From NCBI GenBank assembly GCA_964106915.2, contig OZ066924.1: DNA of 64,000 nt. One strand, 5' to 3'. The notes below the pieces were generated by a model. It searched no databases, was not told the DNA's origin, and saw only the letters and a list, made by a program, of their open reading frames with translations. The DNA comes from Podarcis gaigeae. Taxonomy: Eukaryota. Position numbers and translations under genes: made by a program. Below, one piece after another: positions 4,577-62,952 of the stretch. The first letter of the stretch is position 1, and the number at the start of each line of letters is the position of its first letter.

Positions 4577-5399
4577 GTGTTAGAAGCAGGCCTAATTGTC
4601 TGCTTCCTATTTTGCTCCTTTGTAAACTAGGCAGAGCTGTGCTTCTGAATCAGAGGAAGAAAAATCTTGCTTCAAGGGGAGTAAAGTGAGCCTGCTGTTC
4701 CATGTTTCAGCAATGCTATTGACAGATCAACCATCAAGGTCAGTGGCTATACTCTAGAAGATGAACAATCCACAAGAGTTTGGGGTCTGCACCTCGATGA
4801 TCAGTCCACCTCCTCTGTTTGTCCAAATAAAGGCTGCATTTATTTGATGCTCTGTGCTAATTTTGAATATCATTTCTTCCAGGAAAGGGCAAAACTCTCA
4901 AATTTATGATGGGCACAGCTATTTAATAGAACACATGGAGGACAACCAAAAAGAAAAGGAATTAAATTGCTGTACTGATTTTCATATTATGTGGAAGTCT
5001 TCCTGAACAATGGGACTAGTGGCATCAGCATGATGCTGGAGTACAGCTAATCAAAATCCAGGAGTCTGTTGTACAGTACAGTGTAGCAATAAGCTATCTA
5101 ACTGAATCCCATTTCATTCCCAAGTATCATTGGCAACATTTGTGCTACTCTCTTGTCAACATACAGAGTAGAAAGTCTGGATAGAAGCAAAGTAAATAAG
5201 TGTGGCAAATGTTTGAATAAATGTTGATTTCTCACATTCCTCTCTGATCCTGAATCAGAATGATATGAAGTCCTAAGAATACTTTATTGAGAATAGGGCA
5301 GCTTTTCATCTCCCCAATACTAGGAGCATAGAAACAAACAAACAAAAAATGCCTCCTGGCTCCATCCTTAAGTTCATTTAGGTACTCAATACTACTAGG

Positions 5400-5972
5400 C
5401 AGTGCTTTTTTTCCTCGGGGGACGCAGGGGTACGCATACCCCAAAGCATTTTGTGAAGCTAACGGGAGAAGAAACTTTTTTTTTAAAAAAAATAGTTTCT
5501 TCTCTAGCACAGTGAATCGTCAGTTCCGTTGCTACCCCTGATGGCAACCTCATTTGCTGTCACAGTGTTTCCTGAGTCTCAGATGGAAGCAAGTGATTAA
5601 TGTGTCAAGTAGGAGTTGCAATCTAGCATGGTGATTGGTCAGTTTCGTTGTTACCACCTACGATGGCAGCTTCATTTCCTTTCCCGGTGATTTTCTTGAG
5701 TCAAAATGAGAGTACAGTGGTACCTCAGTTTATGAACTTAATCCGTTCCTGAAGTCCGTTCTTAAACCAAGGCACGCTTTCCCTAATGAGGCCTCCTGCC
5801 GCCAGTGCCCTTCCACCGTTCAGCTTCCATTTGTAGACTGAGGTAAAGTTTGCAAACCGGAACACTACTTCCGGTTTTGTAGAGTTCGTAAACCGAATTG
5901 TTCGTAAACAGGACTGTTCTTAAACTGAGGCACCACTGTACCCCTAAACATTTTTAAAGAAAAAAAGCACTG
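5400..5972. mobile_element. hAT-type MITE hosting a nested Tc1/mariner MITE
   Basis: TIRs cagtgcttttt / aaaaaagcactg with a perfect 8-bp TSD ctactagg (5392-5399 and 5973-5980). Confidence 0.85.
5715..5938. mobile_element. Tc1/mariner (pogo/Tigger-like) MITE nested in a hAT MITE
   Basis: TIRs cagtggtacctcagttta / taaactgaggcaccactg, flanked by TA on both sides. Confidence 0.85.
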
Positions 5973-18401: not shown

Positions 18402-18972
18402 TGAACATGAGCCAACAGTGTGATGAAGCAGCAAAAATGCTACTTTAGGTTGCATCAACCGAAGTATACTGTCCAAATTAAGGGAAGCAATTGTACCACT
18501 CTATTTTTGCTTGGTTAGACCTCAGCTGGAGTACTGTATCCAGATCTGTGCACCACAATTTAAGAAGGATATTGATGAGCTGGAAAGTGTGCAGAGGAGG
18601 GCAACCAAGATTATCAAAGTTTTGGAAACCAAGCCTTATAAGGAACTGTTGAGGGAGTTGGGAATGTTTAGCCTGGGAAAGAGGAAACTGAGATGAGATA
18701 GAAGATGGAGTAAGCTTGTTTTCTCTGGCTTCAGAGGGCAGGACCCAAACCAATGGATTCAATTTACAAGAATGGAGATTCCGACTAATCAGGAAGAACT
18801 TCCTGACAGCAAGAGCTATATGACAGTGGAGTGGTGGTAGATTCTCCATCTTTGAAGGTTTTTAAGCAGAGGTTGGGTGGCCACCTGTCATGTATGATCT
18901 AGTAGGGGGTTAGACTATATGACTATATGACTCTCAGCGTCTCTTCCAACTCTACAATTCTATGATTCTATG
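18402..18972 (+). mobile_element. CR1 LINE 3' fragment (ORF2 C-terminus plus 3' UTR)
   Basis: VRPQLEYCIQICAPQFKKDIDELESVQRRATKII is a canonical CR1 RT C-terminus. The fragment ends in cttccaactctacaattctatgattctatg. Confidence 0.92.
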
Positions 18973-20209
18973 GTAAAAATGTAAATAAAAATAAAGATAT
19001 TTGTGAAAATAACATAGAAATGCACTTACATTAGGAGAAATTGCTTGAAAAATGCATACGTTAATCAAAATTGCATACCAAAATTGTTCCTGTTAGGAGA
19101 AATTCATAGTAAAATGCTGAAGAATTTTATTGAGCATTTTTTAAAAAAACCTTTTTGCAAATTGTTGCAGAAATGTGAAAAACTGCAGAGCCACTGTGGG
19201 CAGAGTGGGTGAAAAGGGAGGGACACATCTGCCACCCTGCACTCATTGGAAGGAGGGTGGGATGAAAAGGCAGCTACACAAATAAATCCTTAAGTGGCTT
19301 TACCACAACAAAGAAATACTGATTTTCGGGAGTGGCTGGTGTGGTAGCAACACAGAATTGACCTCTCGTACCAGTGTCATTGCCTCTTATGAGGACAGTG
19401 TAGGGGATGGGGCAGGGCGATGGTGAGGTTAAACAAGGGTAGTGGAGAGGTTAGGATGGTGCAGGCTCCTGCTGCTATGACTCCCCCCCCCAATTGCTTC
19501 TGCTTTGTCCTGCTCCCATACTACCCTCCTAAACAGCTGTGATACCACTGTTGGGAGGCTGGCTCTGTGGCACCACCCCAGGGGCTGCTTTTGCTTTTTA
19601 AACCTTGACTGTGCAGTTAGCATTTACACTACACAAGCATGCTCTCTCTCTCTCTCTTATTATTTATTTAGTGTACAGAGCATGCATATTCACTTGGTGT
19701 TGCTTGCAAACATGGTACAAATGACTGCACCAACATATGCCTCTATTTAAACATGTGTATTTACAATGATATTGTACCCTGAAATAATCTTATATTTATG
19801 TGTTATGCTGTTGTACTGTATGCTGCCTCTGAATCAGAAATATGCACACATGGCGGTAGGCTGCCAGAGTGCCGCTGCATGCGTCTATATCTATATCATC
19901 TATATCTATATTTCTGCTGCCTGAGTATAAGCATAGCTGCCCAAGAGGTGGCTGGCACTCTTAATTTGGAGGGGCCTGGCCAGCTGTTTATAGAGGAATG
20001 GCCAAAATCCACCCAAACCAATGAGTAGTTCAGTCAAAGCTAAATCCAGAAATCCAGCGTTAAGACTCATATGCACAGCACCTTGCGCATCCATTGTCTT
20101 CACTCTGGTAGGGGGACAGATAGATCAAGACCAATGTGTTTCTAAAACTCACTACTCCTGCTGCGCCCACATGGAAATGATAGATTATACTTAAATCAAC
20201 CAATTAAGG

Positions 20210-21336
20210 AAATGATTGATGGAAATAATTGGAAATTGCAGAGTTTGGAGAAAATGAAGGATAAAGTGCGAGACTGGTTACATTACGCTCAGATTAAAGA
20301 AGTGTTTAAAAATGATAAAAAGTTAGGGTTCCAGGTGGAGAAATCGAAGTTGGAAACAGAGCTGTTAGAACCTAAGGCTAAGGTACTTTCAAGAATGTAT
20401 AACTTGCTGCTGAAATGGAATACACAAGACGAAATGGTTAAATCGGCTATGATAAAATGGGCACAGGACATTGGGCATAACATTATGTTTGAGGACTGGG
20501 AAAGGTTGTGGACCACTGGGCTGAACTTTACTGCATGTAATGCTTTGAAGGAAAATGTAATGAAAATGATATACAGATGGTACATGACCCCAGTTAAACT
20601 TGCCAAAATATACCATTTGTCTGATAATAAATGTTGGAAATGTAAAGAAAATGAAGGAACATTCTTTCACCTCTGGTGGACCTGCCCTAAAGTGAAGGTC
20701 TTCTGGGAAATTATATATAATGAGCTGAAAAAGGTATTTAAGTATACTTTTACTAAGAAACCAGAGGCCTTCCTTCTGGGTATTGTCGGCCAGAAGGTGT
20801 TAAAGAAGGATAGAACATTCTTTATGTATGCAACAACGGCGGCAAGGATACTTATCGCTAAGAACTGGAAAACTCAAGATCCACCCACACTGGAAGAATG
20901 GCAGATGCAGCTGATGGACTATATGCAACTGGCGGAGATGACTGGCAGAATTCGAGACTTGGGAGAAGAAAGGATTGAAGAAGATTGGAAGAAATTTAAG
21001 ATTTATCTACAAAAATATTGTGACTTAGTGGAATGTTAATGAGGATGCTTGGTTATAAATAATTGGCCACCACTAAATTGGACTGAAAATTGACGACAAA
21101 TAAGATTAAGAGAAACAAAATTTGTTGGAGAATTGTTATACTATATCGAATTGAGTGGTTATAAATTTGCAAATAAGATGAGAATTTGCTTGAAAAAAAC
21201 TTATTAACGATGTAAGTGGGAGCGGGAGACGTGAGGAAGTCCAAAGAAGTTATGAAATTTTGTCAAAACAAAGTAATGTTGTTTATTATTTTTGTATTTC
21301 TTTTATAAAAAACCCTAATAAATATCTTATAAAAAA
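20210..21336 (+). mobile_element. 5'-truncated L1-clade LINE, young insertion
   Basis: Intact ORF2 C-terminus, AT-rich 3' UTR, AATAAA at 21317-21322 and an A-tail at 21331-21336. Flanked by an 84-bp perfect direct repeat. Confidence 0.9.
20212..21039 (+). CDS. L1-clade ORF2 C-terminal region with zinc-knuckle (zf-RVT-like) motif; a fragment lacking endonuclease and RT domains
   Basis: 275 codons without a stop, containing CWKCKENEGTFFHLWWTC (CxxC...HxxxxC) and a Trp-rich C-terminus typical of fish and reptile L1. Confidence 0.85.
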   Translation: MIDGNNWKLQSLEKMKDKVRDWLHYAQIKEVFKNDKKLGFQVEKSKLETELLEPKAKVLSRMYNLLLKWNTQDEMVKSAMIKWAQDIGHNIMFEDWERLWTTGLNFTACNALKENVMKMIYRWYMTPVKLAKIYHLSDNKCWKCKENEGTFFHLWWTCPKVKVFWEIIYNELKKVFKYTFTKKPEAFLLGIVGQKVLKKDRTFFMYATTAARILIAKNWKTQDPPTLEEWQMQLMDYMQLAEMTGRIRDLGEERIEEDWKKFKIYLQKYCDLVEC

Positions 21337-22971
21337 CAAGACCAATGTGTTTCTAAAACTCACTACTCCTGCTGCGCCCACATGGAAATGATAGATTATA
21401 CTTAAATCAACCAATTAAGGTTATGTACACATTGTTGGCTTAAAATGCAGCTAGCTTGTTCGTTTTCTCAATTCAGATTGAACCTGGTTTGTGGGGAAAT
21501 GCCTCAAAATACAGTATTCTATAAGAAATGACAGGATACATATGGGATACAGATTGTGGCTAATGTCATGCATATACTGCTTCCCAAACCAGTTCTGGGA
21601 GCCCACTGGATGCAGAGTAAATGGGAGTGTGTACACAGCCTAAAATGTGCTGCAGTGGGATTTAAGCATGTATCTGAGATTCTTTGTAAATGAGGGTTTG
21701 GTTTAGAAATGAGAACAGTGTCTTTTATTAGAGCACTTTTCTTTTGTTGAGCTAAAGAATGTCTTTATAAACAGATGCAATTTCAGCTTGAAGATTCCAT
21801 AAAATGAAAAAATGTCCCAAGATTCTTCTATCTGCCTCAATAGTTAATTAAATTTGACATGGAAGCATGTGGATTTTAATCATTTGAACTTGGCCCTTAT
21901 AGAGTGAGTCGTTAACTTGTTGGCAATCATGGTTTTGTCACACAACTAAGAAAATTCAAGCAGTTTTCTTTGAAGAAATATGTAGGAGGGAATAGCAATC
22001 TTTTGGGTGTTGCCATATAATATCTTTCAGTGAATTAATAATACTTTGAACTTGTACAGCCTCTGCTACTGGTGGTTCTGAAATAAGGAAAAGAATGACA
22101 GATTCAAGATTTTAACTGAGATACCCATGAGAATTCAACAGGCGCCATAAAAAAGAGACAAGAAAGTGAGAAGATATTTTTCAGGGTTTTTTTTTTTTTG
22201 CATCTCAGTGAAAATAGAAGTTCTCTAGGGGACTTCTCTGCAACTTGCCAAGGAGCTGAGATTTAGTCATCCTAACCTAATGACAGCCATCAATGGAACT
22301 TGGTATCTTTCAGCTGTCAGCTTGAAGAAAGAGCCAAAAGTGAAAATGGAAAGAGAGTCTTTTTTATGTTATTTTATTTTTAGGTTGTTGAGTTATCGTT
22401 ATCTGACAATTATCATTTTACAGAAAATAACAACTTGATGCCAAAACAAAATTGCCACAGTGATGTACTGCTGCCATGTTCATTCCTAAGGGGGGGGGGA
22501 TATGTATAATGGCATAAAAGCAAAATAGTAAGAATTTAGATGTCATTTCCAAAGATGCATGGGGGGGGGGACTTAAATCCCTGGGTGTTGTCCAATTATA
22601 GCATTTTTAACCTCTAAAACTGTGATTTTAATTTAGCTCATGTGTTAATATGCAGATATCTGGGGCTGCCCTTGATTTCTGTGTGAAATGACAGTTCCTT
22701 GAGAACGCAGCAATATAACAGAGGTTTCCTGTGGAGTGGGGTGCATATTATTTTCATCCTAAAGCTGCACACAATTCAACGTGCTGATTTAAATCCCCGT
22801 CTGCAATCCTAAACATACTCATGTGGGAGAAATCAGCATTGAACTCAGTGCGACTTACTTCTGAGCAAACCTGGAGAGGATTACGCTGCAAATGGCCTGA
22901 AGCCTAGCCCCAGTCCTATACTCAAATGTCATACCATTGGTGCTGAAACAAGGAAAAGGAACCTCCAAGTC

Positions 22972-31409: not shown

Positions 31410-32639
31410 TCAAGACTAATTATGGGCCTAAGCAGCACCTTTTGGTTTTCTTTCTCCCTCCGCCTCTTATTCTCTTCTTTGGGCTACTTTAAAGCACACT
31501 CCACTGGAAAGAAAGGCTGCCCAGTCCCAGTTGGGGGTGAAGTAAAGAGAGAAAAAACAAAAAGCAACTCAGTTCAATTCAGTAAGCTTCAATGAGGCTA
31601 GTATATTTAATGTGAGCTCTGGGTTAGCCTACAGAATGCAATATTCTCAACAAAAAAAGATGTGTTTAAGGTCGGGCCAGGCCCCATAAGGCTGTTGTTG
31701 GTGTTTAAGCAGTACACCAAGGTATTTAGCTCTAAGGGTTTCTAAACATTCCAGCTGAGAAGAAAACCACAGCTTTACAGTAGCTGCTTAAAGGTTTGGG
31801 GGGCTGGGAACGTTCCCTCCCCCTTGTATTGAAAGGTCAATAAACAGTAGGAAAGATCATGTCATAACAAAGATGAAGCCACTTATTATGGAGTATAGTG
31901 ATAGCTAATGGCACTATTAGGGTAACTAATCCCATGTATTAAATGGCATATTTGTTTAAATAATATTATGATTCTTAGAACATCCAAGTGAGAGACATTT
32001 TTCATTTTGTGCAAGATAAAAAAATCTATTTGTGACAGATGTGTACTAAAAATATAGAAATATTAGCTCATTACTCCCAATAAGTGGTCATCTCTATGTT
32101 GTATCCTGAATGCATTTTTCCCCTGCATGGATGTTATTCATTTATTTTATTAAAATGCTCAAATCTCTTCTTCCTAGTGTAAAAACACTACACAGGGCAG
32201 GTTAAGTTGTATAATGTTACAGTTTCCCGAAAGTATATAAAACCATTTCAAAAAGGATACAGCATCAGCAGTTAAAAACAAGAACATGGAAACCTTGAAG
32301 AATAACAAAGTGTTCAGAAACAGATGAAAAGCAGCAGGAGAGGGAACCAACTGTACTTTGTGGGTGTGGCAAGGTGTGGGAGGCAGTACGCCTCTGAATG
32401 CCAGGTGCTGGGAACTGCAAGTGGGAGAGTGCTGTTGAACTTGTGGGCTTCCCATAGGCAGCTGGATGGCTACTGTGAGAACAAGATGCTGGACTAAATG
32501 AGCCTGTGGCCTGATGTTCTTATGGGTCCAGCCATTGTGAAGGCCCTCTCTCCCTGCCCACCCTCCATCCTTCCACCCTAGGCAGGACACAGAGAAGGAT
32601 CTCTCCTTCTCATCATATGGAGCAGGTAAGATGGTCTGG

Positions 32640-33070
32640 TAGTGATGAATGGATGTGAGAGCTGGACCATAAAGAAGGCTGATCGCCAAAGAATTGATGC
32701 TTTTGAATGGTGCTGGAGGAGACTCTTGAGAGTCCCATGGACTGCAAGAAGATCAAACCTATCCATTCTGAAGGAAATCAGCCCTGAGTGCTCACTGGAA
32801 AGACAGATCCTGAAGCTGAGACTCCAATACTTTGGCCACCTCATGAGAAGCGAAGACTCCCTGGAAAAAAACCCTGATGTTGGGAAAGATGGAGGGCACA
32901 AGGAGAAGGGGCGACAGAGGACGAGATGGTTGGACAGTGTTCTCAAAGCTACAAACATGAGTCTGACCAAACTGTGGGAGGCAGTGGAAGACAGGAGTGC
33001 CTGGCGTGCTCTGGTCCATGGGGTCACGAAGAGTCGGACACGACTAAACGACTAAACAACAACAACAACA
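32640..33070 (+). mobile_element. Bov-B (RTE clade) LINE 3' fragment
   Basis: ESWTIKKADRQRIDAFE..WRRLLRVPWTARRSNLSILKEI...WRALVHGVTKSRTRLND is the Bov-B C-terminus. (CAA)n tail. TSD aagatg(g/c)tctgg at 32628-32639 and 33071-33082. Confidence 0.95.
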
Positions 33071-52659: not shown

Positions 52660-54740
52660 GTAGGGGTGGGGAACATGCCTTCTAGGGTAGTTTGTCCACC
52701 TTTGGTCCCCACCCTTCACCCAGCTCTCACCTGTGGCTCCTAGAAACTGTCAGCATGCGACAGCTGCCACACCCTGGAAGACAGCTTCAAACTGGCAAGC
52801 AATAATAATAATAATAATAATAATTTATTATTTATACTCTACCCATCTGGCTGGGTTTCCCCAGCCACTCTGGCAACAAAATATTAAAATACAGTAGTCC
52901 ATCAAACATTAAAAGCTTCCCTAAACAGGGCTGCCTTCAGATGTCTTCTAAAAGTCTAGTAGTTGTTGTTCTCTTTGACATCTGGTGGGAGGGCGTTCCA
53001 CAGGGCGGGTGCCACTACTGAGAAGGCCCTCTGCCTCGTTCCCTGTAACTTGGCTTCTCACAGTGAGGGAACTGCCAGAAGGCCCTTGGCGCTGGACCTC
53101 AGTGTCGGGGCAGAATGATGTGGGTGGAGACATTCCTTCAGGTATACTGGACCGAATCCATTTAGGGCTTTAAACACTTTGAATTGTGCTCGGAAATGTA
53201 CTGGGAGCCAATGTAGGTCTTTCAAGACCGGTGTTATGTGGTCTCGGCGGCTACTCCCAGTCACCAGTCTAGCTGCCGCATTCTGGATTAGCTGTAGTTT
53301 CCAGGTCACCTTCAAAGGTAGCTCCACATAGAGTGCATTGCAGTAGTCCGATCGAGAGATAACCAGAGCATGCACCACTCTGGCAAGACGGTCTGTGGGC
53401 AGATAGGGTTTCAGCCTGTGTACCAGATGGAGCTGGTAAACAGCTGCCCTGGACACCGAATTGACCTGTGCCTCCATGGACAGCTGTGAGTCCAAAATAA
53501 CTCCCAGGCTGCGCACCTGGTCTTTCAGGTTACCCCATTCAGGACCAGGGAGTCCTCCACACCTGCCCGTCTCCTGTCCCCCCAAAACAGTACTTCTGTC
53601 TTGTCAGTATTCAACCTCAATCTGTTAGCTGCCATCCATTCTCCAACCGCCTCCAGACACTCACACAGGACCTTCATCACCTTCATTGGTTCTGATTTGA
53701 AAGAGTGGTAGAGCTGGGTATCATCCCCATATTGATGAACACCCAGCCCAAACCCCCTGATGATCTCTCCCAGCGGCTCCATGTAGATGTTTAAAAGCAT
53801 GGGGGAGAGGACAGAACCCTGAGGCACACCACAAGTGAGAGCCCAGGGGTCTGAACACTCACCCCCCCCACTTTCTGAACACGGCCCAGGAGGAAGGAGC
53901 GGAACCACTGTATAACAGTGCCCCCAGCTCCCAGCCCCTCAAGATGGTCCAGAAGGATGTTATGGTCAATGGTATGAAAAGCCGCTGAGAGATCCAGCAG
54001 AACTAGGAAACAGCTTTCACCATTGTCCCTAGCCCTCAGGAGATCATCGACCAGTGCGACCAGTGTGACCAAGGCAGTTTCAGTCCCATGTTGAGGCCTG
54101 AATCCTGACTGGAAGGGATCCAAATGGTCCACTTCTTCCAGGCATGCCTGGAGTTGTTCAGCAACCACTCGCTCAATCACCTTGCCCAAGAATGGAAGAT
54201 CTGAGACTTGGCGATAGATATTGGCAACATCTAAAGATGGTTTTTTAAGAAGCGGTTTGATAACTGCCTCTTTCAGCGGGTCTGGGAAGGCTCCCTCACA
54301 GAGAAAAGCATTCACCGCCCTGCGAAGCCCAGCCCTTCCCAGCTAGCTTTTATAAGTCAGGATGGGCAAGGATCAAGGATCAAGGTGGTTGGTTTCACTT
54401 GTCCAAGCTAAGCCAGGAGAAGGTAGTTGATGGGTCTCAAACCGCTTATGAGTTAGGGACTGTGAAGACATGCCCCGGCAGATTGAACTGATGAGACCAA
54501 TAGTGGATCCAGTGGTCAAGAAGGTGATTTCTGCAAGTGCTGTAGAGGGCAGATGGGGCTTGTCAACCTGGAAACGTAGCCCATCTAGGAGAAAGAAGAC
54601 TTTCCTAAACCTCCACTGCCTTGCAGGATATCTTTGGGAGAAGAAAAGACTGAGGAATAAACACTCCACAAATCCAGAGTGGAGTCCCTAAGACAGTTGG
54701 ATGGTGCCTTGTCTGCCTCCTTTCGGCAACTTCTTCAGCA
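52660..54740 (+). mobile_element. RTE-clade 5'-UTR-like element (52660-52800 plus 54404-54740) split by an L2 insertion
   Basis: The two flanks join into one sequence colinear with 13262-13480. The motifs gcccatctaggagaaag...aaacctccactgccttgc...aaatccagagtggagtccctaag resemble vertebrate RTE 5' regions (from recall, not a database search). Confidence 0.5.
52801..54403 (-). pseudogene. L2-clade LINE, 5'-truncated, with a frameshifted reverse transcriptase
   Basis: Three overlapping minus-strand ORFs give PLLKKPSLD, LDPFQSGFRPQHGTETAL, LLDLSAAF, GVPQGSVLSP, YGDDTQLY (YADD mutated) and LQLIQNAAARLV...LHWLPV. The AAT-rich tail is at 52801-52830. Confidence 0.95.
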
Positions 54741-62549: not shown

Positions 62550-62952
62550 GTTGTTGCTTAGTCATTTAGTCGTGTCTGATTCTTCATGACCCCATGGACC
62601 AGAGCACGCCAAACACTCCTGTCTTCCACTGCCTCCCGCTGTTTGGTCAAACTCATGTTGGTAGCTTCAAGAACACTGTCCAACCATCTCGTCCTCTGTC
62701 GTCCCCTTCTCCTTGTGCCCTCAATCTTTCCCAACATCAAGGTCTTTTCCAGGGACTCTTGTCTTCTCATGAAGTGGCCAAAGTATTGGAGCCTCAGGCT
62801 CTGTCCTTCCAATGAGCTCTCAGGGCTGATTTCCTTCAGAATGGATAGGTTTGATCTTCTTGCAGTCCATGGGACTCTCAAGAGTCTCCTCCAGCACCAT
62901 AATTCAAAAGCATCAATTCTTCGGTGATCAGCCTTCTTTATGGTCCAGCTCT
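62550..62952 (-). mobile_element. Bov-B (RTE clade) LINE 3' fragment
   Basis: RVPWTARRSNLSILKEISPE...WRALVHGVMKNQTRLND with a (CAA)n tail. Possible gagttt TSD. Confidence 0.95.

Follow-up and report, generated by a model that had tools for sequence, protein, structure and literature searches.

A one-off 84-bp duplication around a young L1 fragment in Podarcis gaigeae

The window, i.e., the whole 64,000-bp stretch of Podarcis gaigeae DNA analysed here, contains a direct repeat whose left copy (20126-20209) and right copy (21337-21420) agree at all 84 bases, with no further matching base at either end, and form the longest exact direct repeat of the window, as determined by exact-repeat comparison. 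The original prediction of a perfect 84-bp repeat pair around an L1 fragment was thus confirmed. A search of the animal's own genome (1.51 Gb, 211 contigs) returned two places for the 84-mer, both at this locus, which identifies it as host DNA outside the L1 family; the left copy is ancestral host DNA. The same search rules out the 84-mer being part of the L1 family or a transduction, and disposes of the objection, foreseen from the start, that it might belong to the family consensus, its occurrence elsewhere in the genome being 0. The two copies enclose 1,127 bp, comprising 8 bases foreign to the family (20210-20217) and the 3'-terminal 1,119 bp of a young L1 family (20218-21336), with 99.4% identity to the nearest sibling copy, all features being on the plus strand. 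The L1 3' fragment expected here is therefore real, but amounts to only 1,119 bp and not to the 1127 bp claimed for it. No base separates the A tail from the right copy, and 8 lie between the left copy and the L1, so that the repeat adjoins both ends of the insert, as a target-site duplication does, with 8 extra bases at the 5' end.

The L1 part opens with the 3' portion of ORF2 (20218-21039), which covers the C-terminal region with its Cys/His motif, without the endonuclease or reverse transcriptase (RT) domain, is 99.4% identical to the sibling L002/L132 and remains open to the stop codon. It is followed by a 3' UTR common to the siblings (21040-21330), with the predicted polyA signal AATAAA indeed present at 21317-21322, and by a tail of six A (21331-21336). 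The first 8 bases of the insert were matched by 0 of the 39 other genomic copies listed, and are therefore not considered as L1; the 29 siblings inspected differ there. The 275-codon frame noted earlier does exist (20212-21039), but its opening ATG lies inside these 8 bases, so that it is merely a C-terminal piece of the 1,246-aa ORF2, and an open frame is ordinary for this family. Pfam returned no significant match for the window frame alone, and the fragment is incapable of moving by itself. The tail, previously singled out as being only six A long, has that length; the final uninterrupted run of A ahead of the duplication nevertheless varies from 0 to 17 bases in 105 copies (mostly 8-13), and the short tail was dropped as a special sign. 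With 3 private substitutions in 1,114 columns, against a range of 1-9 when compared with 20 subfamily members, the window copy is young but not the youngest. The idea of a very recent, possibly polymorphic event stands as regards youth, while its substitutions are typical of the subfamily and signs of the insertion were found in two samples of the same organism (organism A, see below).

Full-length relatives of the fragment are about 6.1 kb long and carry two non-overlapping frames of 355 and 1,246 aa, intact in copies L194 and L206. In L194, ORF2 matches Exo_endo_phos (E 2.6e-11) and RVT_1 (E 3.3e-37) in Pfam and aligns with human L1 ORF2p over residues 4-1206 (E 1.2e-171). This sibling thus has an N-terminal APE endonuclease and an RT homologous to those of L1 ORF2p, and the family shows an A-rich 3' tail, 5' truncation and short target duplications, all of which agree with a place in the L1 clade. 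We take its dispersed insertion without a fixed target and its poly(A) end to favour L1 over the sister clade Tx1. ORF1 gave only weak coiled-coil matches below the Pfam cut-offs, and no L1-specific Pfam match. Elsewhere in the window, decayed LINE fragments that presumably resemble CR1, BovB/RTE and L2 lie at 18427-18696, 32630-33055, 53058-54342 and 62558-62950, and a SINE that we take to be of the Sauria type was recognised in this genome. No recognisable host gene was seen by eye near the insertion among the window ORFs of at least 120 aa, where masked stretches may hide exons.

The background of chance repeats was evaluated in 1.32 Mb of this genome, 0.97 Mb of which was non-family DNA. 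Perfect repeats of at least 35 bp were mostly dispersed repeats, tandem arrays and LTR-like pairs; in the approximately 0.97 Mb of non-family DNA, two others were unique and non-extendable (35 and 47 bp), neither of them bracketing a young insertion. A chance origin of a repeat fitting both ends of a young L1 is excluded. The 47-bp pair (L167:234-280 and 1445-1491) surrounds 1,164 bp consisting of old repeat and further DNA, with no young element, and its start-to-start spacing of 1,211 equals that of the 84-bp pair, probably by coincidence. The 35-bp pair (L119:4734-4768 and 5381-5415) lies 612 bp apart, with a SINE-like insert between its copies that has its own short duplication.

The state of the locus in other animals was examined in 7 of 23 listed public runs, all as contigs (k=31), from organisms A, B, E, G and H. 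Organism A is the best match and probably the host species, with X15 and X16 from one sample and X1 from another, and one of these samples may be the assembled animal. In organism B (X2), a contig joins 20125 to 21337 and skips 1,211 bases, the 84 bases fitting both sides, while in organism G (X17) a contig consists of the left flank, one 84-mer (with one substitution, at 20164) and the right flank. An empty orthologous site with one 84-mer is thus present in the contigs of both relatives, to be read with the reserve that k=31 imposes, in agreement with the single copy predicted for the empty allele; a double-copy empty site was not seen there. The organism G contig also carries 38 additional bases at window 20119-20120, 5 bp before the insertion site and with a 2-base overlap, which are lacking in organism B and in the window; this difference is an older small indel.

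In organism A, by contrast with the two relatives, the contigs break inside the 84-mer, at 20155 in X1 and X16 and at 20152 in X15, and restart at 21337, as expected at k=31 if the 84-mer is entered by a second path. Run X15 links the L1 tail to base 20126, the first of the 84-mer, and contigs lead from the 84-mer into the right flank in X1, X15 and X16. With a repeat longer than k (84 against 31), graph cleaning might produce a false empty allele; that the contigs break in every one of the organism A runs and in neither organism B nor G argues against this, although it is no proof. The 5' junction (20210-20217) has no contig cover in any of the three organism A runs, so that the assembly is the sole source for a full 84-bp left copy beside the L1. 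Public contigs derive from graph simplification, as stated in the accessible portion of PMC12424806, and a 68-base link into a very high-copy repeat would easily be lost in this process. The flank was without contig cover in organisms H (X18) and E (X5), which proves nothing, the shares of organisms E and F, at about 0.35, were not interpretable, and the estimation of zygosity from contig depth was abandoned, the X15 flank depths being unequal (100.5 left, 59.4 right).

The length of the duplication was then compared with that of sister copies. About 10 kb was fetched around 127 sister 3' ends, i.e., 99 from the best 100 of 125 matches (less this locus) and 28 further copies, a small sample biased to young copies in a genome with 8,079 first-look candidates. 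A duplication of 9-25 bp was called in 104 of the 127 (mean 16.8, SD 2.8, median 17), these lengths counting any A that could equally belong to the tail, and chance matches being possible among the 8 calls of 9-11 bp. No long duplication was found in the 127 copies, the largest being 25 bp (95% upper bound about 2.3%), and the plot of family lengths called for at the outset yielded, for these copies, a single short range, with the long class absent. The 23 copies without a called duplication include one at a contig end, two with a masked 5' end, two with a 17-18-bp match further upstream and two sharing one 3' flank. A boundary-independent scan, together with a BLAST comparison of all upstream DNA with 1 kb of 3' flank at the sister loci, revealed no junction matches above 27 bp except for two tandem arrays: long matches near L122 and L158 were rejected as such arrays, and those at L136, L168 and L212 as lying away from the junction. 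The closest subfamily members are also normal, with, for example, 15-20 bp in L100, L112, L119, L120, L127, L132 and L194. The 84-bp case lies about 24 SD from the family mean and is five times the usual length of about 17 bases; it is a one-off and not a family property. On the side of genome structure, L199 and L200, 120 kb apart on one contig, have a common 3' flank and unequal lengths, which corresponds to a segmental duplication.

Both junctions were then considered in detail. Among 96 siblings with a duplication of at least 12 bp, the context of the first nick is loosely a pyrimidine followed by N-A-A-A (-1 C/T 90%, +1 A 74%, +2 A 54%), position -1 being unable to be A by construction. 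The window context, T|CAAG, is compatible with this preference, with C at 0 and G at +3 as minority states (11% each). No sequence preference was observed at the distal end in the same 96 siblings, so a distal cut cannot be tested by motif. The 8 extra bases at the 5' junction have a likely template inside the duplicated stretch, at 20173-20185, which matches 20208-20220 at 12 of 13 bases, 9 of them in an exact run; in a random control, 58 of 3,000 random 8-base fillers reached at least 9 (p ~0.02). The template is ambiguous, since the L1 itself also matches the 8 bases, at 20221-20231 (10 of 11). Judging from these matches, a template switch likely made the extra bases. At least 2 extra 5'-junction bases were found in 16 of 104 siblings, all of them without a long duplication, and the extras appear to be templated in four: those of L154 and L167 are exact repeats of the L1 5' end next to them, and those of L146 and L216 resemble their own target by eye.

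Several sister loci showed further features. The full-length copies L106, L125, L127, L140, L184, L205 and L216 often have 2-3 extra G/A-rich bases before their start, which we presume to be possibly cap-templated or untemplated additions. L100 and L207, from different subfamilies, are independent insertions that hit a single dispersed repeat at an identical position and have almost the same duplication of 15-16 bp, possibly a preferred site. The 5' junctions of L114 and L215 are directly preceded by what appears to be another L1 3' end with an A tail, and L114 has an 18-bp match to its own 3' flank 7.8 kb upstream, a pattern that suggests tandem or nested copies.

From a mechanistic point of view, we consider, with a probability of about 0.78, that a normal target-primed insertion took place, in which the 5' end was attached to host DNA at 84 bp from the first nick, versus about 17 in sister copies, and in which a probable template switch left 8 copied bases. 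ORF2p would have nicked the bottom strand at 20125/20126, at a site that fits the loose preference of the family, and reverse transcription would have begun at the short A tail. The insertion took in no more than the final 1,119 L1 bases. The usual second nick, about 17 bp away, would have remained unused and a free top-strand end would have been provided at 20209, most likely by a distant host-made nick. Alternatively, a nearer end may have been extended by repair synthesis; the product would be the same and the sequence cannot separate the two, the distal nick being favoured on the basis of the available part of PMC5223499. The original prediction of an event completed by repair synthesis fits the data in the same way, without being distinguished from a distal nick, which is expected to give the same product. 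A polymerase slip or template switch likely copied 8 bases, probably from 35 bp back in the duplicated stretch, and then joined the L1 cDNA, after which fill-in of both 84-base single strands would have given two perfect copies. Anatomy and parsimony together indicate that the duplication was likely formed during the insertion itself, and a rare repair accident is likely because its 84 bases are five times the scar of about 17 bases left by sister copies.

A first alternative, which we regard as unlikely, separates the duplication from the insertion: a normal insertion with a duplication of about 17 bp would have been followed by a break at the 5' junction, repaired with the empty homologue or the sister as template, so that the left copy grew to 84 bp and a templated patch remained. 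The final sequence would be identical, and the 8 extra bases do resemble an end-joining patch. However, a second rare event would be needed at the exact junction within the short time allowed by the few private substitutions, and extra 5' bases are common in siblings that have no long duplication. We find it still less probable that the assembly merged filled and empty haplotypes and that the true duplication is short. The absence of the 5' junction from the contigs of all three organism A runs speaks for such an artefact, and, if the samples were heterozygous, the link from the left flank to the 84-mer could be that of the empty allele. Against it, those contigs are simplified graphs, and the hole at the 5' junction favours no position because no junction to this L1 was seen elsewhere in the left flank either. 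Moreover, 8 new junction bases would be unexpected from a haplotype merge, the 3' junction is real (X15), the window lies in a 65-Mb contig, and 104 sibling loci were assembled with normal junctions.

An 84-bp tandem duplication that preceded the L1, the latter then landing precisely on the junction and making no duplication itself, is very improbable: such insertions may occur, given the 23 of 127 siblings without a called duplication, but an exact hit on one bond would be required and relatives B and G hold one copy. The proposal that the ORF2p of this lineage routinely cuts with a wide stagger, as originally suggested, has this one locus in its favour and can practically be discarded in view of siblings that are never long (0/127) and mostly within 9-25 bp. 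A broader reading, which we advance as speculative, is that the length was set by the host, the germline rescuing stalled insertions of any class through repair in which about 80 bp of target DNA are copied. If this were true, the long tail of the length distribution would serve as a natural record of how the germline repairs DNA.

The 84-bp case is therefore real but is a rare outcome of a known process, long duplications having already been described in cultured cells, for L1 as for other LINEs, at least in the portions of the literature cited here. Second-strand cutting and 5' joining are the least understood step of L1 insertion, and the case adds an example and not a mechanism, because a distal nick and repair synthesis are indistinguishable from a single locus. 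Detection pipelines that require a 5-25-bp duplication (PMC12016303) would not score such events as duplications. No paper on long L1 duplications in lizards was found among the titles and abstract beginnings listed, a weak negative; supplementary tables of target-site duplications may include long inherited cases.

Compared with L1 families of other non-mammalian vertebrates, the window family is alike in its length of about 6.1 kb, its two ORFs (355 and 1,246 aa), its APE endonuclease and RT and its mostly 5'-truncated copies; it differs by very short A tails, a loose target preference and the lack of any 5' inversion detected in 128 family copies, a count in which sampling by the 3' end and chaining could have missed some. 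In human L1, 5' inversions reach 18-22% (PMC12016303). As regards duplications beyond the usual range, the L-TSD class, defined as more than 20 bp among LINE target-site alterations (PMC4245944, in the part available), is similar in that long duplications are rare and extra 5'-junction bases are ascribed there to template jumps and host factors. ZfL2-2 indeed gave a 1,228-bp duplication in 1 of 25 wild-type events in DT40 cells, with 5' extra bases attributed to template jumps (PMC2666801, in the text accessible). That class was described in these excerpts for ZfL2-2, of the L2 clade, and for human L1 reporters, whereas the present case concerns an endogenous L1 family. Small tandem duplications of 1-10 kb associated with L1 in cancer genomes and cell models are regarded as large target-site duplications, with repair synthesis proposed (bioRxiv 10.1101/2024.12.14.628481, available portion); they are somatic, whereas ours is 84 bp long and inherited. 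Long somatic duplications are also mentioned in the accessible part of PMC4398972.

The closest comparison is with de novo human L1 insertions in HeLa and nucleotide excision repair (NER)-deficient cells (Servant et al., PMC5223499). According to the available part of that report, which cites Gilbert 2002/2005 and Symer 2002, L1 duplications usually measure 5-30 bp, and those above 100 bp account for no more than 10% of the events in HeLa and for the majority in NER-deficient cells; its authors propose a distal, unrelated nick for the large ones, and its tables include duplications of 40, 47 and 54 bp and others in the kilobase range. Both systems are of the L1 clade and share an A tail, a plausible endonuclease first nick and a rare outsized duplication. 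Theirs, as far as this portion of the report goes, are engineered inserts in cultured human cells, whereas the present insertion arose naturally and is inherited in a non-mammalian vertebrate, its empty sites are seen in relatives, and the distribution of lengths in its family has been measured. As an inherited outlier with empty alleles, it indicates that the route to long duplications observed in cultured cells is also taken, at a low rate (0/127; upper bound about 2%), in the germline of a non-mammalian vertebrate.
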